A DNA stretch of 14,762 nucleotides from a virus. Lineage: Duplodnaviria > Heunggongvirae > Uroviricota > Caudoviricetes. A model generated the notes under the pieces. It was not told the DNA's origin. It did not search any database and worked only from the letters and a program-made list of their open reading frames with translations. The stretch lies in the IMG/VR virus record IMGVR_UViG_2684622581_000004, positions 1 through 14,762 of that record. One strand, 5' to 3'. Positions within the stretch are counted from its first letter, which is position 1, and every line of letters begins with the position of its first letter. Both the position numbers and the translations under genes were made by a program. Below are positions 1 through 14,285 of the stretch, piece after piece.

Positions 1-1248
1 ATGGCACTGAATATTCCATTCAGAAATGCGTACTATCGTTTTGCATCCAGTTACTCATTTCTCTTTTTTATTTCCTGGTCGCTGTGGTGGTCGTTATACG
101 CTATTTGGCTGAAAGGACATCTAGGGTTGACAGGGACGGAATTAGGTACACTTTATTCGGTCAACCAGTTTACCAGCATTCTATTTATGATGTTCTACGG
201 CATCGTTCAGGATAAACTCGGTCTGAAGAAACCGCTCATCTGGTGTATGAGTTTCATCCTGGTCTTGACCGGACCGTTTATGATTTACGTTTATGAACCG
301 TTACTGCAAAGCAATTTTTCTGTAGGTCTAATTCTGGGGGCGCTCTTTTTTGGCCTGGGGTATCTGGCGGGATGCGGTTTGCTTGACAGCTTCACCGAAA
401 AAATGGCGCGAAATTTTCATTTCGAATATGGAACAGCGCGCGCCTGGGGATCTTTTGGCTATGCTATTGGCGCGTTCTTTGCCGGCATATTTTTTAGTAT
501 CAGTCCCCATATCAACTTCTGGTTGGTCTCGCTATTTGGCGCTGTATTTATGATGATCAACATGTGTTTTAAAGATAAGGATCACCAGTGCGTAGCGGCG
601 GATGCGGGAGGGGTAAAAAAAGAGGATTTTATCGCAGTTTTCAAGGATCGAAACTTCTGGGTTTTCGTCATATTTATTGTGGGGACGTGGTCTTTCTATA
701 ACATTTTTGATCAACAACTTTTTCCTGTCTTTTATGCAGGTTTATTCGAATCACACGATGTAGGAACGCGCCTGTATGGTTATCTCAACTCATTCCAGGT
801 GGTACTCGAAGCGCTATGCATGGCGATTATTCCTTTCTTTGTGAATCGGGTAGGGCCAAAAAATGCATTACTTATCGGTGTTGTGATTATGGCGTTGCGT
901 ATCCTTTCCTGCGCGCTGTTCGTTAACCCCTGGATTATTTCATTAGTGAAGCTGTTACATGCTATTGAGGTTCCACTTTGTGTCATATCCGTCTTCAAAT
1001 ACAGCGTGGCAAATTTTGATAAGCGCCTGTCGTCGACGATCTTTCTGATTGGTTTTCAAATTGCCAGTTCGCTTGGGATTGTGCTGCTTTCAACGCCGAC
1101 TGGGATACTCTTTGACCACGCAGGCTACCAGACAGTTTTCTTCGCAATTTCGGGTATTGTCTGCCTGATGTTGCTATTTGGTATTTTCTTCTTGAGTAAA
1201 AAACGCGAGCAAATAGTTATGGAAACGCCTGTACCTTCAGCAATATAG
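1..1248 (+). CDS. cscB: Sucrose:H+ symporter (oligosaccharide:H+ symporter, LacY family, MFS)
   Basis: 415-aa ORF, highly hydrophobic with 12-TM-like pattern; N-terminus MALNIPFRNAYYRF... matches my recollection of E. coli CscB; clear LacY-family resemblance. Stop TAG at 1246-1248. Confidence 0.85.
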   Translation: MALNIPFRNAYYRFASSYSFLFFISWSLWWSLYAIWLKGHLGLTGTELGTLYSVNQFTSILFMMFYGIVQDKLGLKKPLIWCMSFILVLTGPFMIYVYEPLLQSNFSVGLILGALFFGLGYLAGCGLLDSFTEKMARNFHFEYGTARAWGSFGYAIGAFFAGIFFSISPHINFWLVSLFGAVFMMINMCFKDKDHQCVAADAGGVKKEDFIAVFKDRNFWVFVIFIVGTWSFYNIFDQQLFPVFYAGLFESHDVGTRLYGYLNSFQVVLEALCMAIIPFFVNRVGPKNALLIGVVIMALRILSCALFVNPWIISLVKLLHAIEVPLCVISVFKYSVANFDKRLSSTIFLIGFQIASSLGIVLLSTPTGILFDHAGYQTVFFAISGIVCLMLLFGIFFLSKKREQIVMETPVPSAI

Positions 1249-1256
1249 ACGTAAAC

Positions 1257-1300
1257 TTTTCCGGTTGTTGTCGATATCTCCCTATCCCTCAACCGGAAAA
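1257..1300. repeat. 11-bp perfect inverted repeat (TTTTCCGGTTG / CAACCGGAAAA) with 22-nt loop just after cscB stop
   Basis: Read directly; no U-tract follows on either strand, so not a canonical intrinsic terminator. Confidence 0.3.
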
Positions 1301-1687
1301 TAATAATACTAAAGTGCTTAGCCCTGCTAATAATCACCTAATCCAAACGCCTCATTCATGTTCTGGTACAGTCGCTCAAATGTACTTCAGATGCGCGGTT
1401 CGCTGATTTCCAGGACATTGTCGTCATTCAGCGACCTGTCCCGTGTATCACGGTCCTGCGAATTCATCAAGGAATGCATTGCGGAGTGAAGTATCGAGTC
1501 ACGCCATATTTGCTATCAGGATTCTGTGTGATGGTTACATCGCCCGGCCCAGGGCTGTTTAGTCATCAGCGCTTTCTGACAGTGCTGAGATTTCAACCTG
1601 TTGCAGTAAAAATGAGTAGATATAAGGCAAGTGTGCTGCCAAACCTATCTTTTACGGGGTGAAGGTAGATTTCGTTTGAAGGGTATC

Positions 1688-1702
1688 TGGTGTCCCCTGC
1701 AG
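1688..1702 (-). other. Prophage attR core: copy of argW tRNA-Arg 3' end (CTGCAGGGGACACCA on minus strand)
   Basis: Minus-strand 15-mer is identical to the 3' terminal sequence of argW as I recall it; lies 73 nt beyond the torI stop; core sits inside a 7-bp inverted repeat CCCCTGC...GCAGGGG (1694-1726). Confidence 0.65.
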
Positions 1703-1759
1703 ACATCTACTTGACGCGGCAGGGGATTGATTAGAATGGTGTTTTTTAGGTGTGAGAAA

Positions 1760-1781
1760 TATTTTACCCGCTATTTTACCC
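1760..1781. repeat. Tandem direct repeat TATTTTACCC x2 (12-bp period) overlapping torI 3' end, adjacent to attR
   Basis: Read directly; position between RDF gene and att core fits arm-type/RDF binding sites (inference). Confidence 0.3.
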
Positions 1782-1976
1782 ATTGGCGCGGCTTAAGAGC
1801 TTATTTTTGAATTCACAATGGTCACGATATAACCATCTTGCTCGCCCGTGGATAACTTTGGCTTTTGGCAGGTCGCCGGACTTAATCCGGTCATAGATGA
1901 AGGTTTTACCAAAGCCAGTATCAGCCATGATGAATTTCAAATCAACTAGGGAATCAGGCTGTAGTTCGTGTTGCAT
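1776..1976 (-). CDS. torI: Excisionase-like recombination directionality factor / Tor inhibitor (AlpA-Xis family winged helix)
   Basis: 66-aa ORF MQHELQPDSLVDLKFIMADTGFGKTFIYDRIKSGDLPKAKVIHGRARWLYRDH...; matches my recollection of E. coli TorI; RBS GGAG about 9 nt upstream; last gene before attR. Confidence 0.8.
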   Translation of the reverse strand: MQHELQPDSLVDLKFIMADTGFGKTFIYDRIKSGDLPKAKVIHGRARWLYRDHCEFKNKLLSRANG

Positions 1977-1995
1977 GAGTGCTATCTCCGAATAG

Positions 1996-2011
1996 GGAAT
2001 CGAACCTGCAA
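1996..2011 (-). other. 16-nt tRNA T-arm fragment (TTGCAGGTTCGATTCC) identical to the argW segment immediately 5' of the att core
   Basis: Minus-strand 16-mer in the torI promoter region; similarity does not extend into the rest of a tRNA, so this is a fragment, not a gene. Confidence 0.4.
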
Positions 2012-2107
2012 ATCAGGTAATAAAAATACGCTCAATGACGGCGATGGTAGATCAGGATATTTTAAGAAACTGACAGGCCTCATCGAGTGTGAGGCTGTAT
2101 GGCTCTA

Positions 2108-2413
2108 TTATTTCACCTCTTGTTGTGACATTGTTGAAAAATGGATACCAGCTCGTTGCTGCCAGACGATCCAACCGAGAGTCATATCCCATGCCATGTA
2201 TTCGTTATCGCCGTTTTTTGCTCTCCGACGATCTACTAAGTCACCGAAACGCTTTTCCATGAATAATTCATAAGCTTCGCGTTCATCTAGTTCTACTTCC
2301 AGAGATAGGAGTGCGATTTCATAAGCACGGCGCTCAATATCGTCTCGCACGTCAAGGCTGCTGATACGCTCTTTAATTTCTTTAATCAGTTCTTTGTCGG
2401 TAAAAGTGGTCAT
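2108..2413 (-). CDS. yfdT: Hypothetical prophage protein (YfdT-like, 101 aa)
   Basis: ORF with GGAGG RBS; start overlaps upstream stop (TAATG); size and position match K-12 CPS-53 yfdT as I recall it. Confidence 0.55.
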   Translation of the reverse strand: MTTFTDKELIKEIKERISSLDVRDDIERRAYEIALLSLEVELDEREAYELFMEKRFGDLVDRRRAKNGDNEYMAWDMTLGWIVWQQRAGIHFSTMSQQEVK

Positions 2414-2775
2414 TATGCTCCAGCCTCCGGTGCTTTTGGCATTACTGCCCAGTGAGTGATATTGACGTTTTCAAGGTCCCCGACCTGAAATGTCCACTGC
2501 CATTCTCCGGTTTCTTTTTGCCCCCAGGTGTACCAGAGAGAACGCCAGCCAATTAGCCAGCCTTCTCCGTTAGCATCGAATAACAAAACACTTTCATTTG
2601 CTGGTGGCAGTTCAGTTGACACTGGTATTGCTTTGTTTTCCTGTGCTGCACATTTAGCTTCAAGCGCATCGAATTTGCGCACCAGGTATTCAGCATCTGT
2701 TTCATTCACTTTCAGATCTCGCGGTACACATCTCCCACGAAGAAACCCTTCCATTTCGAAAACATTCATGCGCAT
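2413..2775 (-). CDS. yfdS: DUF551-family phage protein (YfdS-like, 120 aa)
   Basis: C-terminal W-rich motif ...GWLIGWRSLWYTWGQ...NITHWAVMP typical of DUF551; GGAG RBS; overlaps upstream gene by 10 nt. Confidence 0.6.
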   Translation of the reverse strand: MRMNVFEMEGFLRGRCVPRDLKVNETDAEYLVRKFDALEAKCAAQENKAIPVSTELPPANESVLLFDANGEGWLIGWRSLWYTWGQKETGEWQWTFQVGDLENVNITHWAVMPKAPEAGA

Positions 2776-3302
2776 TTGCGTAACTCCGATAACTCGTTAA
2801 AACGTTCCATAAACATCCCGTAGGCATGGCCCGGTGCCAGTGGAATCACGTTGAACATCTCTGTTGCCGGGATGCCTTCCAGTACAGGCCAGAAAGAGCC
2901 ATCATCAAGCCCGAGATCGCGGCGTTCGGTTGCCAGCATGATGAGATCGGCATATTTCACAGGCGTGCTCATAACCGGGGGTAACCCGTATTTCTCACGG
3001 ATTACGGCGTCTATTTTTTCTTCCATCCGTTTATAGTCAGGAAGAAGGCGTTTCAGTGGCGCGGGGATGTCCTGACAATAAGCTTCTGTTGCATCATGCA
3101 TTAACGCTTCAAAAGCAAATTCCTGCGGTACCAGCTGGCTGCAAAGCACCGCATGTTGGGCGACGCTGTAGAAGTGTGAAAGATGTCCTGCAAAGCGACA
3201 GATATTTGAAAGGGAAACCGCGATATCGTTAATATCGATGTTGTCTTTATTTATCCTGTCATAATAAAAATGCTTCCCGGAAAAAGTTTTAATAAATGAC
3301 AT
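2766..3302 (-). CDS. yfdR: HD-domain phosphohydrolase (5'-deoxynucleotidase, YfdR/YfbR-like)
   Basis: HD motifs (AQHAVL...ALMHDATEAY); start chosen at internal ATG 3302-3300 with GGAGAA RBS 5 nt upstream, giving 178 aa; the longer ORF to 3365 has no RBS. Confidence 0.7.
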   Translation of the reverse strand: MSFIKTFSGKHFYYDRINKDNIDINDIAVSLSNICRFAGHLSHFYSVAQHAVLCSQLVPQEFAFEALMHDATEAYCQDIPAPLKRLLPDYKRMEEKIDAVIREKYGLPPVMSTPVKYADLIMLATERRDLGLDDGSFWPVLEGIPATEMFNVIPLAPGHAYGMFMERFNELSELRKCA

Positions 3303-3396
3303 TTTGTTCTCCACGTTATATGCGCTGCACCGCGCTGAAATTTGGTTAAAGAAAAACCTCGCCATCAGGCGATTATTGAGTCAATTACGTTTCCAT

Positions 3397-3418
3397 AAAT
3401 GCCCCCGCAGGGGCATTT
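3397..3418 (-). terminator. Perfect 9-bp stem hairpin (AAATGCCCC-cgca-GGGGCATTT) 11 nt downstream of the yfdQ-like stop
   Basis: Read directly; weak U-tract, so a terminator or RNA-processing role is uncertain. Confidence 0.25.
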
Positions 3419-3430
3419 GCAGTAATGAAA

Positions 3431-4255
3431 TCAGGCGGTGAAAGTACCAATAAAGGTTTCTACTTTGCTGTCTTTGAACTTCTCAACAAGCAGATCACGA
3501 AATTCGTTAGCCATTTCCTCCTGCACTGCTTCCAGCTGAATAATGCGTAGTACCAGTACAGGACGATCGCCAGTGATAATGCTGAGGCGTAATTTAAACG
3601 GACGTTCTTTCAGACCTTCAAACGGAACGCATTTAAATTCAAATGCCACTGGCATAATGTCTTTGGTCTTCGCTTCGACAGACTCCATCAGGGAGCGTTT
3701 GCCGCTGAAGTCATTATCTTCAAAATCAGCTGTCTGGTTCGCTTCAATTGTGATTTTACGGATCGCCGCAGCCGCTTTGGTTGCCTGAATGGCGTCACCA
3801 TTAGCATCAAAGCCCACAAGGTAGTCGGCCCAGTCTTCAATCCATTCTGCCAGTGACTTCTGGGAGTTACGCTCGCCGTTAACAGACAACAGGGCAGAGA
3901 ACGGTGCTGTCTTTTTCAGTTTGAGAGTGGCGGTGTTATCTGCGTGACCTGGTTCATCAATAGTACCCAGGTTAAGCACACTGACGGCTCGCATATTATC
4001 GGCATCGATAAAGCAGCGGGTGCCTTCATCTGCAAGATCTTTAGAATAACGGGTAAAGTCATCGATGCTGGCAGTGGAAAGCGCACCACGGAAACGGAAG
4101 CGATTTAAATTAAATTTTTCCAGATCATGAATGCGGAAATTCTCAGGCAATGCCACAGCATCGGCACCAATCTTACTGATAATTTCATTAACACCCTGAG
4201 CAGAAATAAGGGCATGGATTTGATTAATTGTGGTTGCGTCTAAGTTCTGAGACAT
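3431..4255 (-). CDS. yfdQ: DUF2303-family prophage protein (YfdQ-like, 274 aa)
   Basis: 274-aa ORF with GAGGA RBS; size and neighbourhood match K-12 yfdQ as I recall it. Confidence 0.6.
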
Positions 4256-4320
4256 AATAAGTCCTCACTATATAAAGATATTCAGTGATGAGATAAATAA
4301 TCAGTTTATTAAGAACGATA

Positions 4321-4683
4321 TTAACGACCTGCTGCGCGGAGTTTTCCGTCAGGCTCACCGGCAAGAGTCAGTAATTGTCCCTGGTCTTCCTGCAGAATAG
4401 TCAGGCGACCACCGCGATTGACATACATCGGCGTTTCGGTGGTGTCTTCTTCGGAAATTTTCCCGCGGTTAGTCGGGCGAACATATGAGAGTTTGTGTTT
4501 GATTTTCACTCGGTTCTCATCAAACGGTTCGATTTCTAGGTTGAGCGAGACCTTACCTTTGGTTCTCGTGTTCATCACACCGGAAGCGACTTCACTGAGA
4601 ACTGCGCCGATTTTGGTTTCAAATACGCCGCCGTCCAGCTCCCCGATAAATGCCTGCACATCAGTACTGCGTTCGCTAGCCAT
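4321..4683 (-). CDS. yfdP: Hypothetical prophage protein (YfdP-like, 120 aa)
   Basis: Start at ATG 4683-4681 with GAGGAG RBS 7 nt upstream; the 226-aa extension to 5001 runs through GC-rich Pro/Arg-rich sequence and is rejected. Confidence 0.55.
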   Translation of the reverse strand: MASERSTDVQAFIGELDGGVFETKIGAVLSEVASGVMNTRTKGKVSLNLEIEPFDENRVKIKHKLSYVRPTNRGKISEEDTTETPMYVNRGGRLTILQEDQGQLLTLAGEPDGKLRAAGR

Positions 4684-5151
4684 TTTGCTGCTCCTCATCA
4701 TATCGACCCTGCAAGGTCGGTTAGTTTCTCCACAAAACAGAGAAGAACACCTGCGGTGACTGCCGCCCGGATGGATTGGGTTATGAGCCCGTCGTCCGGT
4801 GATGCTCTTCTCTGTTTTGTAAAAAGGACGGTACCAGCCGGAAGCAAGGGTACAAGCTGGTACCGCCAAGACTACACACAGCATAAAGTTGTGGTGCCGG
4901 GTGCCTCCCGGTGCCTGGCGAAGGTTGCACACCAGGCGGGTGGGTATCCACAGAAGGTCGACTGTCAGCCTCAACCTTAACCCGCGTGCGCTGAGCCGCA
5001 TTCACCACAACGCTAAGGATTCTCTCTGGTTGAAAATACTTAGCTGTTATGTGCCTGCTTTTAGCCACATCAGGCGAGGTGGACCTAGTTATTCCCCAAC
5101 AACAAGGATTCGGTTAATCTGGTTATCCCCAACAACGCAAAAGGAAAAGAA
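4684..5151. other. GC-rich, hairpin-dense noncoding island (candidate structured ncRNA or cis-regulatory leader)
   Basis: No credible ORF in six frames; 15-bp perfect inverted repeat 4732-4746/4806-4820; 10-bp stem 4829-4838/4856-4865; further stems 4897-4911 and 4913-4938; direct repeats GTTATYCCCCAACAAC at 5088-5103 and 5121-5136; GC far higher than the flanking AT-rich genes. Confidence 0.45.
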
Positions 5152-5586
5152 ATGTCCGGTAATATCTATACGCTGTACAAATCCCACTGTGAAAATGTTG
5201 GAAAGTATCGGGGCATTGAAATCAGTGGGGTAGTGTCATCAGTCGAAATAAGCAAAGTTGAATCAAGGGCAACATTACTTACTCTTCTGGACCTTGTCTT
5301 ACATGAGCACCGGAAGAAATTCGGCACTCCCTATAATCAGTTGAATGGGAAAAAGGCTCTGGTTCACCTTATTCTGATGAAGCATCACTGGATGCCAAAA
5401 CAGATTAATGAGATGAAATTTGATGAACTTCTTCTTTCAATTCAGGATGAACTCACACTTGATAAAATAAGCGTAACCGCCCAGAAATTTTTAGATTATC
5501 GAGACTGGAGATCACAAATTCATCACTTTGATGATTTTGACGAAAATGAATGGGATCCTAATTTGTCTGCACAATATCTAAAGTAA
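5152..5586 (+). CDS. Orphan hypothetical protein (144 aa), AT-rich, opposite strand to the early-left operon
   Basis: ATG with AAGGA RBS 6 nt upstream; protein-like composition; no family recognised; markedly lower GC than neighbours. Confidence 0.55.
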   Translation: MSGNIYTLYKSHCENVGKYRGIEISGVVSSVEISKVESRATLLTLLDLVLHEHRKKFGTPYNQLNGKKALVHLILMKHHWMPKQINEMKFDELLLSIQDELTLDKISVTAQKFLDYRDWRSQIHHFDDFDENEWDPNLSAQYLK

Positions 5587-5764
5587 CATCCTGTGATAAA
5601 ACCGTGATTTCCTGATCCAGTTTTTTTAAGGAGTCTATTGTTTCCTGTCGATAAGACAGCACTTCACGAAGCTGGTTTATAGCTGCCAGCTTCTTTGTCA
5701 TCCACTCATAAATTTCCTCATCTGTGTAGCCAGGCGCGACGATTTTGGGTTCTGTTTTGTGCAT
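5558..5764 (-). CDS. Small acidic hypothetical protein (68 aa), first ORF downstream of PL
   Basis: ATG 5764-5762 with GAGGAG RBS at 7-nt spacing; overlaps the 3' end of the convergent 144-aa ORF by 29 nt; not Arg-rich, so not N-like. Confidence 0.5.
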   Translation of the reverse strand: MHKTEPKIVAPGYTDEEIYEWMTKKLAAINQLREVLSYRQETIDSLKKLDQEITVLSQDVTLDIVQTN

Positions 5765-5809
5765 TTCACATCTCCTCAAGTTATCAGTTACTTGTTGATG
5801 GGGACCAGA

Positions 5810-5821
5810 TTGTTAAAGAGC
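5810..5821 (-). promoter_or_regulatory. rrn-type boxA (GCTCTTTAACAA) in the PL leader; nut-like antitermination element
   Basis: Minus-strand 12-mer matches the rrn boxA core as I recall it (TGCTCTTTAACAATTTATCA); flanked by hairpins at 5824-5841 and 5776-5793. Confidence 0.5.
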
Positions 5822-5823
5822 TA

Positions 5824-5846
5824 AGCGTCCTGTAGGGCGCTTTTTT
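5824..5846 (+). terminator. Stem-loop (AGCGTCC-tgta-GGGCGCT) followed by T6: intrinsic terminator on the plus strand, or boxB-like hairpin on the leftward transcript
   Basis: 7-bp stem with one G-U pair, 4-nt loop, U-run only on the plus strand; would end the transcript of the 144-aa gene. Confidence 0.5.
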
Positions 5847-5930
5847 GTTGCTAACGAATCATCCTGGACTTCATATGCCCCAGGCGGCTACTTCGTGGGC
5901 GTCCTGCCTGTTTGTTGTTTCTCTTGGGTA

Positions 5931-5959
5931 CATTATGTATCTCAAAGGTACATTGTCAA
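5931..5959 (-). promoter_or_regulatory. Leftward early promoter PL (-35 TTGACA, 16-17 bp spacer, -10 CATAAT) overlapped by GGTACA operator half-sites
   Basis: Minus-strand hexamers read directly; GGTACA at 5927-5932 and 5947-5952 resemble the OR half-sites. Confidence 0.55.
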
Positions 5960-5998
5960 GTATAAAAAAACCTGCCGAAGCAGGTTCATAAACATTGA

Positions 5999-6673
5999 TT
6001 AGGCTTTGATTTTGTATCTTCTTGGTTTTCCTGAGAAAATCACAGTACCAATTATAGAGCAATTACCGTTGATCTTGATGTAAGGCTCAGGCCAGTTTGG
6101 GTTTAACGCTTTGAGATAACGCTGTGTCCCATCTTCTATCAACCTTTTGAAGGTGGTTTCACCTGTATCGTGCATCAATGCAATAACGTCGTCACCGTGG
6201 CAGGCAGGTACTTCAGGATCGACAAAAATCATGTCTCCCGGGCGGTACTCATCAATCATTGAATCACCTATCACCCGCAAGATATAAGTCATTTCCCCAC
6301 AGGGTACAGGGCAGGGATACGTTTCTGCTGTGCTCAAATCAACCTCAGAATATCCAACTTCTTTCCATGCTCCGGCCTGTACCCATGATATGACAGGGAC
6401 TAATGTGATTTGTTTATTAGTGATTGAAACATCAGGTTTTTTTGTGATGTTCGTTGTCTGGTGTTCTTGATCGAGCCATCCGACAGGCAGGTCGAAACAT
6501 TTTTCGATGTGTCGTGCCATGCTGTCACCGATATTTTTAGTAGCACCATCTCCCATAAACCTGCTGGTCTGGGTTGGCTCGCGATCAATCATAGTGGCAA
6601 AGGAAGAATTCCCGCCAACACCATCTCTCAGTTTTCTGGCGTTAGACCGCCGGATGTCATGGATTGTTTTCAT
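5999..6673 (-). CDS. cI: CI-like prophage repressor (N-terminal HTH, C-terminal S24 LexA-type autopeptidase)
   Basis: 224 aa; S24 catalytic Ser in VIGDSM and Lys in TFKRL; Ala-Gly candidate cleavage site (VQAGAW); divergent from a cro-like gene. Confidence 0.85.
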   Translation of the reverse strand: MKTIHDIRRSNARKLRDGVGGNSSFATMIDREPTQTSRFMGDGATKNIGDSMARHIEKCFDLPVGWLDQEHQTTNITKKPDVSITNKQITLVPVISWVQAGAWKEVGYSEVDLSTAETYPCPVPCGEMTYILRVIGDSMIDEYRPGDMIFVDPEVPACHGDDVIALMHDTGETTFKRLIEDGTQRYLKALNPNWPEPYIKINGNCSIIGTVIFSGKPRRYKIKA

Positions 6674-6688
6674 AACGAAATTAAAACC

Positions 6689-6757
6689 CTTGTACCGTTA
6701 AGGTACAAGTATCTTGAAGGTTCATTTCAATCATGTAATATGTACACCGGAGGTACA
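6689..6757. promoter_or_regulatory. OR operator region: palindrome CTTGTACC-N5-GGTACAAG (6689-6709) and palindrome TGTACA-N5-GGTACA (6741-6757)
   Basis: Perfect inverted repeats read directly, flanking and overlapping the PR hexamers. Confidence 0.6.
6714..6741 (+). promoter_or_regulatory. Rightward early promoter PR (-35 TTGAAG, 16-bp spacer, -10 TAATAT)
   Basis: Hexamers read directly, 23 nt upstream of the cro ATG; second operator overlaps -10/+1. Confidence 0.55.
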
Positions 6758-6763
6758 TATCGT

Positions 6764-6964
6764 ATGAAAGCGTATTGGGACTCTTTAACCAAAGAACAGC
6801 AGGGCGAGTTGGCCGGAAAAGTTGGCTCAACACCTGGCTACTTACGGCTGGTTTTCAATGGCTATAAAAAAGCCAGTTTTGTGCTGGCTAAAAAACTTGA
6901 GCAATGCACGTCAGGTGCAATTACGAAATCTGACTTAAGACCGGATATCTATCCGAAAGATTAG
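6764..6964 (+). CDS. cro: Cro-like small HTH regulator (66 aa)
   Basis: Divergent from cI across the operator region; GGAGG upstream; the 167-aa ORF-track version is an antisense extension into cI and is rejected. Confidence 0.6.
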   Translation: MKAYWDSLTKEQQGELAGKVGSTPGYLRLVFNGYKKASFVLAKKLEQCTSGAITKSDLRPDIYPKD

Positions 6965-6995
6965 CAGAACACTTTCAATTTTTAACCACAGAACG

Positions 6996-7559
6996 ATGAG
7001 GCTAATCGTGGGTAAGCATCACTGGAAAATAGAAAAACAGCCTGAGTGGTACGTGAAAGCTGTCAGAAAAATTATCGCGGCGTTGCCGGGTGGTTACGCT
7101 GAAGCGGCTGACTGGCTCGATGTAACAGAAAACGCTTTATTCAACCGCCTTCGTGCAGATGGCGATCAGATTTTCCCGCTGGGATGGGCAATGGTTTTAC
7201 AGCGTGCTGGTGGCACTCACTTCATTGCTGATGCTGTGGCGCAGTCTGCAAATGGCGTCTTTGTGTCTCTTCCTGACGTCGAGGATGTGGACAACGCCGA
7301 TATTAACCAGCGTCTGCTGGAAGTCATTGAACAGATCGGCAGTTATTCAAAACAGATTCGTTCAGCAATCGAAGACGGTGTAGTGGAACCGCATGAGAAG
7401 ACAGCAATTAACGACGAGTTGTACCTCTCAATTTCGAAGCTGCAGGAGCATGCAGCACTGGTCTACAAAATTTTTTGCATTTCAGAAAGTAATGACGCCC
7501 GCGAGTGTGCAGCTCCGGGCGCCGTGGCGTGTCGTGACTGTGGAGAAACTAACGCATGA
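6996..7559 (+). CDS. CII-like phage regulatory protein (putative; YdaT/CP76-like)
   Basis: Position immediately after cro; 187-aa ORF; alternative GTG start at 7008 has a better RBS (GAGG); family assignment is from weak recollection. Confidence 0.4.
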
Positions 7560-7894
7560 ACAGTTTAACAACACACTACCGTCGCTCGCAACTGATTGCG
7601 CTTCCTGTACCGGGTGGAAAAGCGAAGGTGGAGTATTGCTATGCAGTGAATGTACCAGGTGACAGGGAAATTGTAACCCACAGCTTTGCAGAGTGGGCTG
7701 TGGGTGATTTCAACCGGCAGAAGGAGACAGTCCTTTGCGACAAGTTAACCGCTGGTTCAAAGATCACTACGGAGTGCCCGTCAGAGTCATTCGTTGGGAG
7801 CCGGAAACACAACGGGTTATCTACCTCCGTGAAGGCTATGAGCATGAGTGCTTCAGCCCGCTCGAACAGTTTCGTCGTAAATTCAGGGAAATAG
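7556..7894 (+). CDS. Hypothetical protein, apparently frame-disrupted (frame changes at about 7705-7740)
   Basis: ATG overlaps upstream stop (ATGA) with GGAGAA RBS; N-terminal 60 aa look protein-like, the C-terminal part is Ser-rich junk, while the -1 frame from TTG 7734 (AAGGAG RBS) to 7914 gives a good globular sequence. Confidence 0.3.
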
Positions 7895-7903
7895 AGGTCG
7901 GTC

Positions 7904-8845
7904 ATGAGCACTAAATTAACCGGCTATGTATGGGATGGTTGCGCTGCGTCAGGCATGAAATTATCCAGCGTGGCAATTATGGCCCGCCTGGCTGATTTCA
8001 GTAATGACGAAGGTGTGTGCTGGCCATCAATTGAAACCATTGCCCGTCAGATTGGCGCGGGGATGAGTACCGTCAGAACGGCTATCGCACGGCTGGAAGC
8101 AGAAGGCTGGTTAACGCGTAAGGCGCGTCGCCAGGGTAACCGCAATGCGTCGAATGTTTATCAGCTTAACGTTGCGAAGCTTCAGGCAGCGGCATTTTCT
8201 CAACTGTCAGATTCTGACCCGTCAAAATCTGATGCATCAAAATCTGACCCGTCAAAATTTGATGCGTCGAAATCTGGCAAAAAAGCGGGTTTTCACCCGT
8301 CAGAATCTGGCGGGGATCCGTCAGTAAAATCAAAACATGATCCGTCAGATAAAAAAACTTCTCGTCCGGACGCTTCGCAACCGGACACGCAGACGGCTGA
8401 ACAGGAGTTTTTAACTCGCCATCCTGATGCGGTTGTATTCAGCCCTAAAAAGCGCCAGTGGGGAACGCAGGATGATTTGACCTGCGCACAGTGGCTCTGG
8501 AAAAAAATCATCGCCCTGTACGAGCAGGCCGCCGAATGTGACGGCGAGGTGGTTCGTCCCAAAGAACCGAACTGGACAGCCTGGGCAAACGAAATTCGCC
8601 TGATGTGTGTGCAGGATGGTCGTACTCACAAACAAATCTGCGAGATGTACAGCCGCGTCAGCCGCGATCCGTTCTGGTGCCGTAACGTGCTCAGCCCGTC
8701 GAAGCTGCGGGAAAAATGGGATGAGCTTTCCCTGCGCTTATCGCCGTCCGTCAGCACGCACACAGAAAAACGTGAAGACCCGTACTTCAAAGCCAGTTAC
8801 GACAATGTGGACTACAGCCAGATCCCGGCAGGATTCAGGGGGTGA
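7904..8845 (+). CDS. Replication initiator (lambda O-like, N-terminal winged HTH) with internal iteron origin
   Basis: 313 aa; AGAGG RBS; N-terminal HTH-like region; central low-complexity DPSKSDASKS repeats encoded by DNA iterons. Confidence 0.65.
   Translation: MSTKLTGYVWDGCAASGMKLSSVAIMARLADFSNDEGVCWPSIETIARQIGAGMSTVRTAIARLEAEGWLTRKARRQGNRNASNVYQLNVAKLQAAAFSQLSDSDPSKSDASKSDPSKFDASKSGKKAGFHPSESGGDPSVKSKHDPSDKKTSRPDASQPDTQTAEQEFLTRHPDAVVFSPKKRQWGTQDDLTCAQWLWKKIIALYEQAAECDGEVVRPKEPNWTAWANEIRLMCVQDGRTHKQICEMYSRVSRDPFWCRNVLSPSKLREKWDELSLRLSPSVSTHTEKREDPYFKASYDNVDYSQIPAGFRG
8213..8357 (+). repeat. Iteron array (candidate ori): two 30-bp tandem repeats plus further CCGTCAG copies, followed by an A-rich tract
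   Basis: TCTGACCCGTCAAAATCTGATGCATCAAAA at 8213-8242 and near-identical copy at 8243-8272; CCGTCA core at 8219, 8249, 8296, 8318, 8342. Confidence 0.6.
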
Positions 8846-9336
8846 TTATGAGTCTTTTGAATGAAGTTCAGAAATTCATTGAAGCCCATCCTGGGTGTAC
8901 TTCCGGAGACATTGCTGATGCTTTTGCAGGTTACTCACGGCAGCGCGTTCTGCAGTCAGCAAGCAAGTTACGTCAGAGTGGGCGTGTGGCTCACCGTTGT
9001 GAAGGGGATACACGCAGACATTTCCCGCGCCAGACAAAGATATCGCCGGAGGCGGAACGGCAACCAGTTCGTGAAACCAGACCTGTGCGCAATTTCTATG
9101 TCGGCACTAACGATCACCGGGTGATTTTGTGCCTGACCCGCCAGGCTGAAGAACTGGAGTCAAGGGGCTTATACCGTCGTGCTGCAACCGTGTGGATGGC
9201 GGCATTCCGTGAAAGCCACTCCCAGCCAGAACGAAACAATTTTCTGGCGCGTCGTGAGCGGTGCTTACGGAAAAGCAGCAAGCGCGCTGCATCGGGTGAA
9301 GAGTGGTATCTGTCAGGGAATTACGTGGGGGCTTAA
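8842..9336 (+). CDS. yfdN: PerC-family-like transcriptional regulator (YfdN-like, 164 aa from GTG; alternative ATG at 8848)
   Basis: Motif RQAEELESRGLYRRAATVWMAA resembles the PerC/Pch signature; overlaps the upstream stop; size matches K-12 yfdN as I recall it. Confidence 0.5.
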   Translation: MIMSLLNEVQKFIEAHPGCTSGDIADAFAGYSRQRVLQSASKLRQSGRVAHRCEGDTRRHFPRQTKISPEAERQPVRETRPVRNFYVGTNDHRVILCLTRQAEELESRGLYRRAATVWMAAFRESHSQPERNNFLARRERCLRKSSKRAASGEEWYLSGNYVGA

Positions 9337-9989
9337 TGAGTAATAAATATTGTCAGGCGCTGGTGGAACTGCGGAACAAACCAGCCCATGAACTGAAGGA
9401 AGTGGGCGATCAGTGGCGCACGCCGGATAACATTTTCTGGGGAATTAACACCCTGTTTGGTCCGTTTGTTCTGGATCTGTTCACTGACGGTGATAACGCC
9501 AAATGTGCCGCGTATTACACGGCGGAAGACAACGCGCTGGCGCATGACTGGTCAGAACGTCTTGCGGAGCTTAAAGGTGCTGCCTTTGGTAATCCCCCAT
9601 ACAGCCGCGCCAGTCAGCATGAGGGGCAATACATCACCGGCATGCGTTACATCATGAAGCATGCCAGTGCCATGCGTGATAAAGGCGGGCGCTATGTTTT
9701 CCTGATCAAAGCTGCCACCAGCGAAGTGTGGTGGCCGGAAGATGCAGATCATATTGCTTTTATTCGCGGGCGTATTGGTTTTGAACTGCCTGCCTGGTTT
9801 ATCCCGAAGGATGAGAAGCAGGTGCCGACAGGCGCTTTCTTCGCTGGTGCTATTGCTGTTTTCGACAAGACCTGGAAGGGACCGGCAATCAGCTACATCG
9901 GGCGCGATGAACTTGAGGCATGTGGTGAGGCGTTTCTGGCGCAGGTTCGCCAGCAGGCGGAAAAACTGGTCAGGGAGATGGCGGCATGA
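9336..9989 (+). CDS. Phage N6-adenine DNA methyltransferase (Dam-like, orphan)
   Basis: Catalytic NPPY motif (FGNPPYSR); start at ATG 9336 overlapping the upstream stop (TAATG); no adjacent restriction endonuclease. Confidence 0.8.
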   Translation: MSNKYCQALVELRNKPAHELKEVGDQWRTPDNIFWGINTLFGPFVLDLFTDGDNAKCAAYYTAEDNALAHDWSERLAELKGAAFGNPPYSRASQHEGQYITGMRYIMKHASAMRDKGGRYVFLIKAATSEVWWPEDADHIAFIRGRIGFELPAWFIPKDEKQVPTGAFFAGAIAVFDKTWKGPAISYIGRDELEACGEAFLAQVRQQAEKLVREMAA

Positions 9990-10312
9990 CGACGTTAACT
10001 CAATGCCAGCAGCAGGTGCTGGATATGCTGATTTCTTACCAGAAAGAACGTGGCTTTCCGCCAACCAATCAGGAGGTGGCAACCATGCTGGGATACCGTT
10101 CAGTGAATGCAGCAGTGGAGCATCTTCGCGCACTGGAGAAAAAAGGCGTCATCACGATAAAGCGTGGCGTGGCCCGGGGGATAACGCTTCATACCGCGGT
10201 GAAGGCCGACGACAGCGAGGCGGTCGAGATTATCCGCGCACTGCTTGCCGGTGAGGAAAACGGCAGGCTGCGTGCAGCCCACTGGTTACATGAGAGGGGC
10301 CTGAAAGTATGA
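9986..10312 (+). CDS. LexA N-terminal DNA-binding-domain-like protein (no S24 peptidase domain)
   Basis: 108 aa; strong resemblance to the LexA winged-helix DBD (QQQVLDMLISYQKERGFPPT...LRALEKKGVI); ATGA overlap with the MTase stop. Confidence 0.6.
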   Translation: MTTLTQCQQQVLDMLISYQKERGFPPTNQEVATMLGYRSVNAAVEHLRALEKKGVITIKRGVARGITLHTAVKADDSEAVEIIRALLAGEENGRLRAAHWLHERGLKV

Positions 10313-10698
10313 AGCTGAACCTGCCTTTTCCGCCCAGCGTGAACACGTACTGGCGACACCCCAACAAAGGGGCGTTTGCTGGTAAGAGCCTGATAAGCGC
10401 GGCGGGGCGAAAATTCCAGAGCGCGGCGTGCGCAGCAATAGTTGAGCAGTTACGTCGTCTGCCGAAACCAACGTCGGCACCTGCTTCAGTGGAGATCGTG
10501 TTGTTTCCTCCGGATAACCGGATCCGCGATCTGGACAACTATAACAAGGCGCTGTTTGACGCCCTGACCCACGCGGGTGTGTGGGAAGACGACAGTCAGG
10601 TGAAAAGAATGCTGGTGGAGTGGGGACCGGTTATCCCGGAAGGGAAGGTCGAGATCACTATCAGTAAGTACGAGAAAACGGCGGGTGCAGCCGCCTGA
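10309..10698 (+). CDS. rusA: Holliday junction resolvase RusA
   Basis: 129 aa with RusA-like N-terminus (LPFPPSVNTYWRH) and DLDNYNKALFDALT motif; ATGA overlap with upstream gene. Confidence 0.8.
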   Translation: MKLNLPFPPSVNTYWRHPNKGAFAGKSLISAAGRKFQSAACAAIVEQLRRLPKPTSAPASVEIVLFPPDNRIRDLDNYNKALFDALTHAGVWEDDSQVKRMLVEWGPVIPEGKVEITISKYEKTAGAAA

Positions 10699-10717
10699 TC
10701 AAGAGGAGAAACGAAGT

Positions 10718-11515
10718 ATGAATAATCTGATGGTCATTGATGGTATTGAAGTTCGTCGTGATGCTTTTGGGCGTTACAGCCTGAACGATCTGCACAGGGC
10801 TGCCGGTTCTCTGGATAAGCATAAGCCTGCATTCTGGCTCCGCAATGAGCAAACTGAACGTTTAATAAGCGAGTTGCAGATTTGCAACTCGGTCAATATA
10901 GAGCCAGTTAACGTTATTCGTGGCGGAAATAACCAGGGGACGTATGTCTGCAAAGAACTGGTGTATGCCTATGCAATGTGGATCAGCCCGTCATTCCATC
11001 TGAAGGTGATCCGTACTTTCGACATGGTAACCAGTGCACCGGAAAAATTATCCGGACAGGCTGCTGACAAGATGCAGGCTGGTGTGATTCTGCTGGACTT
11101 TATGCGCCGGGAATTAAACCTGTCTAACTCTTCAGTGCTTGGTGCCTGTCAGAAACTCCAGGAGGCTGTTGGCTTACCGAATCTGGCACCGCGCTATGCC
11201 ATTGATGCTCCTGCTGACGCGCCTGATGGCTCAAGCCGCCCCACGCTGTCACTGAGTGCACTGCTGAAGCAGTATGGTATCCGCCTGACAGCTAATCAGG
11301 CATATCACCAGATGGTGAAGCTGGGGATCGTCGAGCAGCGAGAACGGTACAGCCGTACCACGATTAACAACATCAAAAAATTCTGGTCGCTGACAGCGAA
11401 AGGCTGCATGTTCGGCAAGAATATCACCAGTCCCGCAAATCCGCGCGAGACGCAGCCGCATTTCTTCGAATCCCGATTCCCTGAGCTGTTAAAGCTGCTC
11501 GATACCGTTCATTGA
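10718..11515 (+). CDS. KilA-N domain protein (antirepressor-like)
   Basis: N-terminal KilA-N signature (IDGIEVRRDAFGRYSLNDLHRAAG...FWLRN); start at ATG 10718 with AGGAG RBS rather than the RBS-less 10685. Confidence 0.7.
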   Translation: MNNLMVIDGIEVRRDAFGRYSLNDLHRAAGSLDKHKPAFWLRNEQTERLISELQICNSVNIEPVNVIRGGNNQGTYVCKELVYAYAMWISPSFHLKVIRTFDMVTSAPEKLSGQAADKMQAGVILLDFMRRELNLSNSSVLGACQKLQEAVGLPNLAPRYAIDAPADAPDGSSRPTLSLSALLKQYGIRLTANQAYHQMVKLGIVEQRERYSRTTINNIKKFWSLTAKGCMFGKNITSPANPRETQPHFFESRFPELLKLLDTVH

Positions 11516-11516
11516 G

Positions 11517-12512
11517 GTGACCGTGAGAGCACTACTGACCCCTGAAATTGCCCCGCGTATGGGGATCGTATTGTTCAGGCCAGGTTCAGAGTTGATGCCC
11601 CTGTTTATGCAGAGGCGTGTCCTGCTGGAGCCTGAGCCGGAACGTTATTCATCTTTCGCCAGTGGTGCCGTTCCGGCGGCATCACAACCGCTGGCGGATG
11701 ATCCTGCCGTTCGGGCCGTGTTCCGCAATGAGGCAGTGATCCGTCGTGCTGGTGGCGTGGAATGTCTTGAAAGCTGGTTACTTCGTGAAAAAGGCTGCCA
11801 GTGGCCTCATTCCGACTGGCACAGCGAGAACATGACAACAATGCGACACGCTCCGGGCGCAATCCGTTTGTGCTGGCACTGCGATAACCAGCTGCGCGAT
11901 CAGTTCACGGAACGGCTGGAATCAATGGCAACGGATAACTGTGCCCGCTGGGTGTTGTCTGTTGTGCGTCGGGATCTCGGTTTTGATGATAGTCACGTTG
12001 TGACAATGCCGGAACTGTGCTGGTGGCTGATTCGTAATGACCTGGCGGATGCCTTACCGGAAAGTGCAGCCCGTAAGGCACTGAGATTACCGAAGCCTGT
12101 TGTGCAGGCGGTCACCCGGGAAAGTGACCTTGTGCCTTCGGTTCCTGCCACCAGCATTATCCAGGATAAAGCGAAAAAGGTGCTGGCGCTGAAAGTGGAT
12201 CCGGAGTCGCCGGAGTCTTTTATGTTACGCCCAAAACGTCGCCGCTGGGTTAATGAAAAGTACACGCGCTGGGTTAAGACACAGCCGTGTGCATGTTGTG
12301 GAAAGCTTGCTGATGATCCCCACCACCTGATAGGTCACGGTCAGGGTGGAATGGGAACAAAAGCGCATGACCTCTTTGTGTTGCCTTTGTGCAGAAAGCA
12401 TCACGACGAGCTGCATGCGGATACCGTGGCATTTGAAGAGAAGTATGGCTCCCAGCTGGAGCTGATATTTCGTTTTATCGATCGTGCGCTGGCAATAGGC
12501 GTACTGGCGTAA
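11517..12512 (+). CDS. DUF968-family protein with C-terminal Cys/His (HNH-like) motif
   Basis: C-terminal CACCG...HHLIGHGQGGMGTKAHD...LPLCRKHHDELH; GTG start with overlapping GAGG; start codon uncertain. Confidence 0.55.
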   Translation: MTVRALLTPEIAPRMGIVLFRPGSELMPLFMQRRVLLEPEPERYSSFASGAVPAASQPLADDPAVRAVFRNEAVIRRAGGVECLESWLLREKGCQWPHSDWHSENMTTMRHAPGAIRLCWHCDNQLRDQFTERLESMATDNCARWVLSVVRRDLGFDDSHVVTMPELCWWLIRNDLADALPESAARKALRLPKPVVQAVTRESDLVPSVPATSIIQDKAKKVLALKVDPESPESFMLRPKRRRWVNEKYTRWVKTQPCACCGKLADDPHHLIGHGQGGMGTKAHDLFVLPLCRKHHDELHADTVAFEEKYGSQLELIFRFIDRALAIGVLA

Positions 12513-12525
12513 GTGGAGAACGAGC

Positions 12526-13278
12526 ATGAACCTTGAAGCCTTACCGAAATATTACTCCCCAAAATCTCCAAAATTGAGTGATGACGCACCGGCGACAGGC
12601 TCTGGTGGTTTAACAATTACGGATGTGATTGCTGCGCAGGGGATGGTGCAGTCGAAAGCACCGCTTGGGTTTGCCTTATTCCTGGCAAAAGTTGGTGTTC
12701 AGGATCCTCAGTTTGCGATTGAAGGTCTGCTCAATTACGCGATGGCACTGGATAACCCGACATTGAATAAATTGAGTGAAGAAACCCGGCTACAGATTAT
12801 TCCTTACCTTGTGAATTTTGCCTTTGCTGATTATTCCAGGTCTGCGGCAAGTAAGGCTCGCTGTGAGCATTGTGCTGGTAATGGATTTCATAATGTATTG
12901 CGCGAAGTGGTGAAACACTCCAGAAGCGGGGAATCTGTTATCAAGGAAGAGTGGGTGAAGGAACTATGTCAGCATTGTCATGGTAAGGGAGAAGTCAGCA
13001 CAGCGTGCAGAGGGTGTAAGGGTAAAGGTATTGTCCTGGATGAAAAAAGGACCCGGCTTCATGGCACGCCTGTTTATAAGATTTGTGGGCGTTGCAATGG
13101 AAACCGGTTTAGCCGTTTACCAACCACACTGGCGCGGCATCATGTCCAGAAGCTGGTACCAGATCTGACGGATTATCAGTGGTACAAAGGATATGCAGAT
13201 GTCATTGATAAACTGGTGACAAAGTGCTGGCAGGAAGAAGCATATGCTGAGGCGCAATTAAGAAAAGTGACGAGATAA
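12526..13278 (+). CDS. Late-gene antitermination protein Q
   Basis: 250 aa with multiple CxxC zinc-binding pairs (CEHCAGNG, CQHCHGKG, CRGCKGKG, CGRCNGN); sits directly upstream of a late promoter/terminator and the lysis genes; GGAGAA RBS. Confidence 0.7.
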   Translation: MNLEALPKYYSPKSPKLSDDAPATGSGGLTITDVIAAQGMVQSKAPLGFALFLAKVGVQDPQFAIEGLLNYAMALDNPTLNKLSEETRLQIIPYLVNFAFADYSRSAASKARCEHCAGNGFHNVLREVVKHSRSGESVIKEEWVKELCQHCHGKGEVSTACRGCKGKGIVLDEKRTRLHGTPVYKICGRCNGNRFSRLPTTLARHHVQKLVPDLTDYQWYKGYADVIDKLVTKCWQEEAYAEAQLRKVTR

Positions 13279-13309
13279 ATGATTTTCGCCGAAGATAGTG
13301 ACATGATTC

Positions 13310-13338
13310 TTGCATTTTTCAAAAGATCTGGTTAGGAT
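13310..13338 (+). promoter_or_regulatory. Candidate late promoter PR' (-35 TTGCAT, 17-bp spacer, -10 TAGGAT)
   Basis: Hexamers read directly, 32 nt after the Q stop and upstream of a terminator. Confidence 0.4.
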
Positions 13339-13384
13339 TCTCCTAACGATGGGCTTTGTGTGTCTACCATTGATAATCTTCAAG

Positions 13385-13408
13385 AAACCGCCACCGAGCG
13401 GTTTTTTA
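13385..13408 (+). terminator. Candidate tR' intrinsic terminator (AAACCGC-caccga-GCGGTTT + T-run)
   Basis: 7-bp stem followed by TTTTTTATT; placed where Q-dependent antitermination would act. Confidence 0.45.
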
Positions 13409-13566
13409 TTGATGTCAATTGTGTTTTTAAGGCTCTCCTTCCTTAAAGTGTGTTGTACAAAAAACTGGCAGCCAGCTACGCTCATTTTGAAAAAGTGACA
13501 CCCTTCAATGTTTCTTTTGAATGGAATTGCTACCCATAAATCTCTATCAAAAACAGGAGAGCATAT

Positions 13567-13809
13567 ATGGTGGAGCGTTGTTCTGTTTGTGAGCAGTCAT
13601 TAAGTTATTCACGAGAAGTTGAACAAGATGGCGTTGAATATAAATCTTGCCCAAAATGTTCTGCTGATGCCGGAGTGCACGTTTTTTATAAAACAATAGA
13701 CTTTGGTTATAGGGATATGGGAGACGGAAGGCATATCGTTCAGTCATGGTGTCCGGCTTGTCGTTCTGGTGAAAAACCTTCTATACCACCAGCATTTAAA
13801 TGTTGTTAA
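13567..13809 (+). CDS. Small zinc-ribbon protein (80 aa, CxxC pairs); moron between tR' and the lysis cassette
   Basis: AGGAGA RBS 7 nt upstream of ATG; CSVC...CPKC...CPAC motifs; own terminator downstream. Confidence 0.55.
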   Translation: MVERCSVCEQSLSYSREVEQDGVEYKSCPKCSADAGVHVFYKTIDFGYRDMGDGRHIVQSWCPACRSGEKPSIPPAFKCC

Positions 13810-13828
13810 CTCAATGAATTATAAAAAG

Positions 13829-13853
13829 AGGCTGCCTGTGGGCGGCCTTTTTT
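13829..13853 (+). terminator. Intrinsic terminator (AGGCTGCC-tgtg-GGCGGCCT + T6)
   Basis: 8-bp stem with one G-U pair, followed by TTTTTTG; directly after the zinc-ribbon ORF. Confidence 0.6.
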
Positions 13854-13940
13854 GTGCACTACGCAACTTTTGCGACTCAGCGCTATAACCAGCTTCTTTC
13901 CCTTCACTCGTTGCACTTCCGATAACCGGAGGTGGGAATT

Positions 13941-14282
13941 ATGAAAATGCATAACGATCCTCATTCCTGGTCTGACTTACTTGAATTGTTACAGAGCTGG
14001 TGGCGTGGAGACACACCGTTGGGCGCAGTAATTATGTCGATCGTTATGGCTGGCTTGCGCATTGCCTATTTTGGCGGTGGTGGTGGCTGGAAGCGAAAAA
14101 CGCTCGAGATTTTGCTCTGTGGCGCTCTGACTCTGACTTTTGCATCCGCTCTTGAGTATGTCGGATGGCCTAAATCTCTTTCTGTTGCCATTGGTGGCGG
14201 CGTTGGGCTGATCGGGGTCGATGCTATTCGTGGGGCTGCAATGCGAGTAATCGGTAACAAATTTGGTAGCTCGAAGGAGTAA
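13941..14282 (+). CDS. S: Holin (lambda S-like class I, dual-start MKM)
   Basis: GGAGGTGGG RBS then ATG-AAA-ATG; hydrophobic TM-like segments; immediately upstream of endolysin; the GTG at 13932 from the ORF track is rejected. Confidence 0.75.
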   Translation: MKMHNDPHSWSDLLELLQSWWRGDTPLGAVIMSIVMAGLRIAYFGGGGGWKRKTLEILLCGALTLTFASALEYVGWPKSLSVAIGGGVGLIGVDAIRGAAMRVIGNKFGSSKE

Positions 14283-14285
14283 TTT

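Follow-up and report, generated by a model that had tools for sequence, protein, structure and literature searches.

A YdfC-family gene and its convergent neighbor in the leftward early operon of an SfIV-type prophage

The dicB operon of the Qin prophage of Escherichia coli K-12 (ydfA-ydfB-ydfC-dicF-dicB-ydfD) includes ydfC (b1573), which encodes a protein of 72 amino acids (aa). Here we describe a relative of ydfC: an open reading frame (ORF) of 68 aa on the minus strand of IMG/VR record IMGVR_UViG_2684622581_000004, along with the 144-aa gene that converges on it and overlaps it. We analyzed positions 1 to 14,762 of this record (the window), which is a lambdoid prophage of the SfIV/SfV/e14 type from E. 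coli or Shigella. Coordinates of the features are in Table 1. The 68-aa protein is 41% identical to YdfC and belongs to the same PHROG. The two proteins have similar isoelectric points (pI), and both genes lie in a repressor-controlled leftward early operon. The Qin gene differs in being third in its operon, after ydfA and ydfB and before the dicF small RNA, whereas the gene in the window is the first after the PL promoter and overlaps a convergent gene.

The arrangement of the two genes has described counterparts as well. In phage lambda, sieB (plus strand, 34482-35036) ends exactly against N (minus strand, 35037-35438), which is the first gene of the PL operon, and transcription from PL necessarily runs antisense through an accessory gene that is embedded in the operon. 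The window has the same elements: an opposite-strand gene within the PL operon, which ends against the first PL gene and has its own terminator. Because lambda's N/sieB has the identical layout, our finding is largely ordinary. The differences from lambda are that the coding regions in the window overlap by 29 nucleotides (nt), that the terminator of the accessory gene lies upstream of the start of the first PL gene, that the pair has no sequence relationship to N or SieB, and that the small protein lacks an arginine-rich motif.

The e14 prophage of E. coli K-12 belongs to the same phage group as the window, with the same repressor family and the same conserved PL-leader RNA. In the same slot, beside ymfK, it carries another convergent pair, ymfI (plus strand) and ymfJ (minus strand), which overlap by 63 nt (L003 5998-6585). 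However, YmfI and YmfJ are unrelated to the pair in the window (they belong to different PHROGs and NCBIfam families), and e14 has no plus-strand terminator block between the leader and ymfJ. We considered a shared ...IVTN end as a sign of homology to YmfJ and rejected it: there is no homology, and we take the shared end to be a coincidence.

The leader RNA, taken by itself, can be compared to put of HK022, a lambdoid phage that lacks N; putL is an RNA in its PL leader that acts in cis as an antiterminator (PMC9378689). Like putL, the leader in the window is structured, is about 70 nt long, and begins a few bases past the predicted start of PL transcription, in a group of phages that lack N. 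Unlike put, which is two adjacent stems, the leader in the window is an outer helix that encloses inner elements, and there is a single copy of it in the window. Also, there is no evident sequence similarity to putL, and our model of the leader (R1) has no match in the HK022 locus, nor in the lambda or Qin-type loci.

In other words, the 68-aa gene is another member of a known but functionally uncharacterized family, in a type of arrangement that was already known. We consider it likely that this is a real YdfC-family gene, that it is promoter-proximal in the cI-repressed PL operon of an SfIV/SfV/e14-type prophage, that it encodes an accessory early protein, and that it is exchangeable cargo together with the convergent 144-aa gene.

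The 68-aa gene and its promoter

The ORF runs from an ATG at 5764 to a stop codon at 5560-5558. An earlier note, which was made from the letters of this DNA alone, had described a small minus-strand ORF with a GAGGAG ribosome-binding site and a 29-nt convergent overlap with the 144-aa gene, and all of this is borne out by the sequence. PGAP annotates the ORF as WP_000549623.1. The phrog_1744 profile matches the entire protein (residues 1-68 of 68, E = 6e-35) and also matches K-12 YdfC (E = 1.6e-39). In a BLASTP comparison to K-12 YdfC, 27 of 66 positions were identical, without any gaps (E = 9e-18); ydfC of the Qin prophage also turned up, unexpectedly, in a DNA search of E. coli genomes. More broadly, an exhaustive profile search found 111 representatives of the family at E = 1e-3 or better. 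In an alignment of 20 sequences, an N-terminal motif, MxKxEPxI(I/V)APxYT(D/N)(D/E)E(I/L)YEWM, is almost invariant, and it is followed by a variable segment in which hydrophobic positions are kept along the helix. Family alignments show that the motif persists when the overall identity is just 31-46%.

The pattern of substitutions also indicates that the protein is under selection. A diverged copy of the small ORF, with 58% DNA identity, is found on L172, a metagenomic contig. Compared to that copy, the proportion of nonsynonymous differences (pN) was 0.337 and the proportion of synonymous differences (pS) was 0.693, for a ratio (omega) of about 0.23. Of the six frames, none has a lower dN/dS or a higher dS than the annotated one. 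Two scans of IMG/VR proteins kept only 100%-identical copies, so these were of no use for dN/dS but could be used for co-occurrence. Another four proteins (P0040, P0050, P0053 and P0054) were considered as diverged homologs and rejected, as they are frameshifted copies, probably due to assembly errors. On the strength of these comparisons, we conclude that the small ORF is a genuine protein-coding gene under purifying selection. It had been proposed beforehand that a lack of conservation in related prophages would speak against the gene; in fact, the ORF is conserved, both across the YdfC family and in the more distant copy of the gene pair in L172.

Close copies of the region are widespread. 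Positions 5100-6000 of the window are mostly present in 406 complete genomes of E. coli, and among the matches listed, each copy is at least 99.7% identical. Shigella phage SfIV is 98.3% identical to the window across this region. In the RefSeq annotation of an identical copy, the genes from right to left are the LexA-family repressor ymfK, the 68-aa ORF (WP_000549623.1, "hypothetical protein"), and, on the opposite strand, an "ECs1072 family phage-associated protein". Further to the left are early genes of the yfdP/yfdQ/yfdR type, an excisionase, and an integrase.

The 68-aa ORF was not called in the deposited record for SfIV (KC814930; L002 in our analysis). There, the YdfC-like gene (5459-5665) is unannotated, and SfIV_35 (4790-5134) is annotated over a conserved non-coding block, which corresponds to the block upstream of the 144-aa gene. 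Probably, SfIV_35 is a spurious call and the YdfC-like gene is a missed call.

The small gene had also been described as the first ORF of the PL operon, and this agrees with what we found upstream of it: a strong leftward promoter (11/12 matches to the consensus) that is overlapped by two putative operators, which match the pair at PR. Of the operator motifs at PL (TGTAC-N7-GTACA), the one at 5936-5952 has 1 mismatch and lies between the -35 and -10 elements, and the one at 5916-5932 has 2 mismatches and lies over the predicted start of transcription. Perfect copies of the motif are present at PR/PRM, between cI and cro (6691-6707 and 6741-6757). Elsewhere in the window there are only weak scattered matches. 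Besides PL itself, a promoter scan found no promoter-like site on the minus strand between PL and the small ORF. In Qin-type prophages, YdfC-family genes are likewise in a leftward operon that is close to the repressor (dicA, ydfA, ydfB, ydfC, and then dicB).

As for the protein, the earlier note had viewed it as acidic, with coiled-coil character, and not as an arginine-rich antiterminator like N. This description still fits. The pI is 4.78, with 12 acidic residues (D+E) versus 8 basic residues (K+R). AlphaFold2 (AF2), given the family alignment, predicts that residues 1-14 are extended and that residues 15-67 form one helix, with a mean predicted local distance difference test (pLDDT) of 89.7. 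The only arginine is R33, so there are none in residues 1-32, and the protein does not match Pfam's N family. Searches of Pfam, NCBIfam, and PADLOC gave only coiled-coil noise (such as CheZ and NICE-3), a search of sequences in the PDB gave only GCN4 and designed coiled coils (E of 0.009 or worse), and Foldseek found no match among viral structures. We infer that this is an accessory early protein and not an N-type antiterminator. It would act early after induction, probably by binding another protein, of the host or the phage, by way of its coiled-coil-like acidic amphipathic helix.

Several observations weigh against our reading of the gene. There is no homolog with a known function: the literature describes YdfC as a small protein of unknown function from the dicBF operon (PMC5069750). 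Within the close subfamily from E. coli (P0022 and P0024), the few differences mostly change an amino acid, so the C-terminal helix may be only weakly constrained. The copy from E. albertii (L170 1070-1312) is frameshifted after about residue 48, while the neighboring plus-strand gene, which is 72% identical, is intact; the frameshift is either a sequencing error or decay. The related phages SfV, SfII, and PhiR29_1 do not have the small gene, so it must be dispensable. Finally, the promoter scan found no sigma-70 promoter with at least 9/12 matches on the plus strand upstream of the 144-aa gene.

The convergent gene and the cassette

The core of the overlap between the two coding regions is 13 nt, ACTTTAGATATTG as read on the minus strand. 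It is identical in L172; its minus-strand translation is TLDI, and its plus-strand translation is QYLK. Beyond the small gene, the earlier note had placed a plus-strand terminator at 5824-5846, and we found one there, with nearly the same boundaries (Table 1). Its hairpin (5823-5842) has 8 pairs, of which 5 are G-C, and is followed by TTTTTT. When folded as RNA, the hairpin is predicted to be more stable on the plus strand (-14.1 kcal/mol) than on the minus strand (-8.0 kcal/mol), where a C-A mismatch takes the place of a G-U pair; this terminator is therefore essentially specific to the plus direction. It is kept in L172, with a different loop, and in PhiR29_1, where it is directly behind a different plus-strand gene. 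The idea that a plus-strand transcript would run fully antisense to the small gene stands as well, in that the geometry holds whenever transcription of the 144-aa gene extends to the terminator.

Upstream of the 144-aa gene is a conserved block with the direct repeats TATTCCCCAACAAC (5090-5103) and TTATCCCCAACAAC (5123-5136). About 50-90 nt of this block are better conserved than the 144-aa gene itself (L178 150-345; L172 430-540; L171 2930-3000). No consensus promoter was recognized within the block (5060-5151).

The AlphaFold model of the 144-aa protein is all-helical (pLDDT 83.6). We found no homology to SieB or to exclusion or defense proteins in Pfam or PADLOC, and no informative fold match. 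We considered a microarray entry for "ECs1072" of E. coli Sakai (PMC2241611) as evidence of expression and rejected it, as the ECs_1071-1073 region of Sakai has no homolog of either the 144-aa or the 68-aa protein. In the Sp4 prophage of O157:H7 Sakai (L304), the gene that is now between ECs_1071 and ECs_1073 is ECs_5703, which is 151 aa long and is not homologous to the "ECs1072 family" protein of the window. No homolog of the window's protein was found in the 40 kb of Sakai that we examined, which means that the name given by NCBIfam cannot be traced to that locus.

If both genes are expressed as their arrangement suggests, the two would be used at different times. In the lysogen, PL would be repressed, and any transcript of the 144-aa gene would be antisense over the whole small gene and would stop at the terminator, before PL or cI. 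After induction, transcripts from PL would start near 5925, so that the structured leader RNA and the boxA-like site (both described below) would be part of them. On the way they would pass through the terminator, which is weak in this orientation, and would yield the small protein. They would then proceed antisense through the entire 144-aa gene to the 226-aa gene and the other early genes. Because the 144-aa gene is embedded in the PL operon on the opposite strand, transcription from PL can reach the 226-aa gene only by this antisense passage. The two transcription units traverse each other, so they should interfere, as the layout would also predict for lambda's N and sieB. Judging from the geometry, antisense interference between the two genes is plausible, and the 144-aa gene may be expressed in the lysogen. 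The weakest links in this proposal are the plus-strand promoter for the 144-aa gene, the expression of the two genes, and the target of the small protein. The earlier note was silent on the antisense passage of PL transcripts across the entire 144-aa gene, and also on the homology to YdfC, on how common this layout is in lambdoid phages, and on the structured leader and the boxA-like sequence.

The two genes seem to travel as a cassette. Among the IMG/VR loci that we fetched, all of those with one gene intact also carry the other gene and the leader, and these are found beside at least two immunity types and in two downstream contexts. In L172, a homolog of the 144-aa protein (52% identity) has a convergent overlap of 44 nt with a 66-aa YdfC-family ORF (MHKTEPKIIAPGYSDEEIIEWISRK...), and both of the non-coding flanks are far better conserved than the genes are. 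PhiR29_1 shares this 5′ block and this terminator block, but with an unrelated plus-strand gene and without a small ORF. Since the flanks are conserved around differing cargo, we argue that the flanks define a slot, and that an ECs1072-type gene together with a YdfC-type gene makes up one sort of cargo for it. The two families can also occur apart. For example, L171 has a homolog of the 144-aa protein (56% identity) without the small partner, and Qin-type YdfC genes do not have a neighbor of the 144-aa type.

To describe what follows the conserved leader, we surveyed the first ORF in 81 loci with the leader (L173-L263 and the window). This survey used a crude rule for ORFs, so we used it for the diversity of first genes and not for the frequency of convergent partners. 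The first ORFs are from at least 30 unrelated families, so the slot is hypervariable, and 11 of the 81 are of the YdfC type. Also, some members of the YdfC family are longer (130-190 aa; P0193, P0194, P0196, P0237, P0239, and others), and their C-terminal modules are found elsewhere in the group as stand-alone first genes of the PL operon (the first ORFs of L173 and L224). For instance, P0237 is similar to the first ORF of SfII (E = 2e-14), and P0194 is similar to the first ORF of L224 (E = 1e-27). No Pfam domain was found in the C-terminal extensions. The homology of these extensions to stand-alone first genes implies that small early proteins are shuffled as modules.

In the Qin-type loci L179, L181, L182, and L183, opposite-strand genes (74-211 aa) are common in the interval from the ydfC homolog to dicB, so the leftward operon may contain a second hotspot for accessory genes.

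The leader RNA and the boxA-like site

The structured RNA in the PL leader is common to phages with different repressors, including SfII, SfIV, SfV, e14, ST64B, mEp460, Pantoea AH07, Citrobacter phiNP, and at least 120 IMG/VR contigs. The structure is nested: inside an outer helix are a short helix of 3 bp, a single-stranded stretch that is invariant, and a hairpin. Across 79 sequences (68 of them distinct), 93.7% of cells are paired, versus 20-42% if the partners are slid. Compensatory changes occur in 9 of the 16 pairs, and the covariation score is 0.489, versus 0.131 in shuffles (0 of 500 shuffles reached 0.489), with the caveat that the sequences were gathered by exact matches to a 17-mer of the invariant core and that the alignment was fitted to the model. 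No family in Rfam 15 matches the leader.

Further along the PL transcript, after the reversed terminator hairpin and before the small gene, is a sequence that resembles the boxA of ribosomal RNA (rrn) operons, whose consensus we take to be TGCTCTTTAACAA. The site is identical to rrn boxA at 12 of 13 positions and is conserved in L172. It includes an exact 12-mer, GCTCTTTAACAA, at 5810-5821; by chance, we would expect about 0.10 matches with at most 1 mismatch per window. This is not a nut site of the lambda N type, in which boxA has a boxB hairpin about 10 nt or less behind it: although the boxA-like 12-mer is present, there is no conserved boxB hairpin 3′ of it. The sole G+C-rich hairpin nearby is 5′ of the site and is mismatched on the minus strand. 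The authors of the SfIV study did not find homologs of N, cII, or cIII in SfII, SfIV, or SfV (PMC3851460). On these grounds, it is a reasonable hypothesis that the leader is a cis-acting, N-independent antiterminator, and it may also be a leader element of some other kind. This unannotated RNA is a by-product of our analysis, but it is more interesting than the gene pair, and it is the lead most worth following.

Table 1. Positions of the two convergent genes and of nearby features in the window
Feature	Position	Strand	Evidence
68-aa YdfC-family gene, first of the PL operon	5558..5764	-	ORF and translation, phrog_1744, homology to YdfC, dN/dS, AF2
Shine-Dalgarno sequence GAGGAG (CTCCTC on the plus strand), 7 nt before the ATG	5772..5777	-	read from sequence
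Opposite-strand accessory gene, 144 aa, NCBIfam NF033230 "ECs1072 family", phrog_5286, antisense within the PL operon	5152..5586	+	
Tail-to-tail overlap of both coding regions, 29 nt	5558..5586		read from sequence
Conserved 5′ block of the plus-strand cassette	5060..5151	+	conserved in L172, L170, L171; also PhiR29_1
Intrinsic terminator: 8-bp stem, tetraloop, T6	5823..5848	+	terminator scan, RNA folding
boxA-like sequence AGCTCTTTAACAA (transcript reading AGCUCUUUAACAA, 5822-5810)	5810..5822	-	between the reverse of the terminator hairpin and the small gene
Structured RNA of the PL leader, conserved	5848..5925	-	model R1, 97.6 bits; covariation
Two putative operators, TGTTTCTCTTGGGTACA and TGTATCTCAAAGGTACA, type TGTAC-N7-GTACA	5916..5952		motif search
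PL promoter: TTGACA (-35, 5959-5954), 16-nt spacer, CATAAT (-10, 5937-5932)	5932..5959	-	11/12 consensus match
Terminator of the repressor gene, directly upstream of PL	5961..5987	-	terminator scan; SfV annotates a terminator at the equivalent place
cI/YmfK-type LexA-family repressor	5999..6673	-	Peptidase_S24, E = 1.5e-26; annotated as ymfK / cI
Next gene of the PL operon, 226 aa	4321..5001	-	ORF call, annotation, PHROG

Alternative explanations and significance

We considered several other explanations for these observations. The 68-aa ORF might not be a gene at all, in which case the region would be nothing but the 3′ untranslated part of the 144-aa transcript and the 5′ leader of PL transcripts. 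The ORF is uncalled in KC814930, the family is small, and its sequences are short; but given the strong Shine-Dalgarno sequence, the PGAP annotation, the gap-free and full-length homology to YdfC, the 111 representatives of the family, and the frame-specific pattern of substitutions, we give this explanation almost no credence. It is scarcely less improbable, in our view, that the 68-aa protein is an antitermination factor of a non-canonical kind, replacing N in this group of N-less phages and acting with the adjacent boxA-like site. The small gene does occupy the position of N, the boxA-like 12-mer is 46 nt upstream of the start codon (with 45 intervening bases), and the authors of the SfIV study report no N homolog (PMC3851460). 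On the other hand, the protein is acidic and has no arginine-rich motif, and the boxA-like site has no boxB-like hairpin behind it. Also, SfV, SfII, and PhiR29_1 share the leader and the early genes yet do not have the protein, and the first genes after the leader are diverse (at least 30 unrelated families in 81 loci). A third possibility is that the small gene is chiefly an RNA target, so that convergent transcription gives mutually exclusive lysogenic and lytic expression and the protein matters little. With the terminator past the small gene, about 260 nt of antisense RNA would be obligate, and convergent overlaps recur with unrelated genes in e14 and lambda. However, the protein is clearly constrained (omega is about 0.23, and the motif is kept at 31-46% identity), there is no antisense partner for the YdfC homologs of other prophages, and in PhiR29_1 the terminator is directly behind the plus-strand gene, with no small ORF between them. 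We consider this improbable, though less so than the previous two.

Two other ideas are unlikely but deserve somewhat more weight. The two genes could be a functional pair, with the 144-aa protein as an exclusion or toxic factor that is expressed in the lysogen, and with the YdfC-like protein as an antidote that is made first from PL, so that induction of the phage itself would be spared. The logic would be as for SieB and Esc of P22, or for BstA and aba. The genes are together in every locus of this type that we fetched, the same convergent overlap is retained at about 50% protein divergence, and both genes are variable cargo between conserved flanks. Nevertheless, each family is also found alone (the Qin-type YdfC genes and the 56%-identical homolog in L171), and the 144-aa protein has no match to a defense model and no informative fold match, so we doubt that they are a pair in this sense. 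To a similar degree, we doubt a more elaborate idea: that the small gene is expressed only because an undescribed, N-independent RNA system (the leader structure, perhaps with the boxA-like site) makes the polymerase from PL resistant to termination. Having passed the terminator, this polymerase would produce the YdfC-like protein and then, through collision or antisense pairing, shut down the convergent gene of the lysogen. In that case the cassette would be a self-contained toggle between lysogeny and lysis, and the coiled-coil protein might also neutralize its partner. Our preferred explanation is still that the 68-aa gene encodes an accessory early protein of the YdfC family and that the two genes are exchangeable cargo.

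What this analysis adds is a family identity (YdfC) and a position in the operon for a gene that is labeled only as hypothetical in about 400 genomes of E. coli and is absent from the SfIV record. The convergent overlap is a further example of a lambdoid habit, in which opposite-strand accessory genes are set against the first gene of the PL operon. If the pair turns out to be functionally coupled, then the finding would matter more. And if the PL-leader RNA is a new class of antiterminator for lambdoid phages that lack N (SfII, SfIV, SfV, e14, ST64B, and their relatives), then it would account for how these phages express their early operons.

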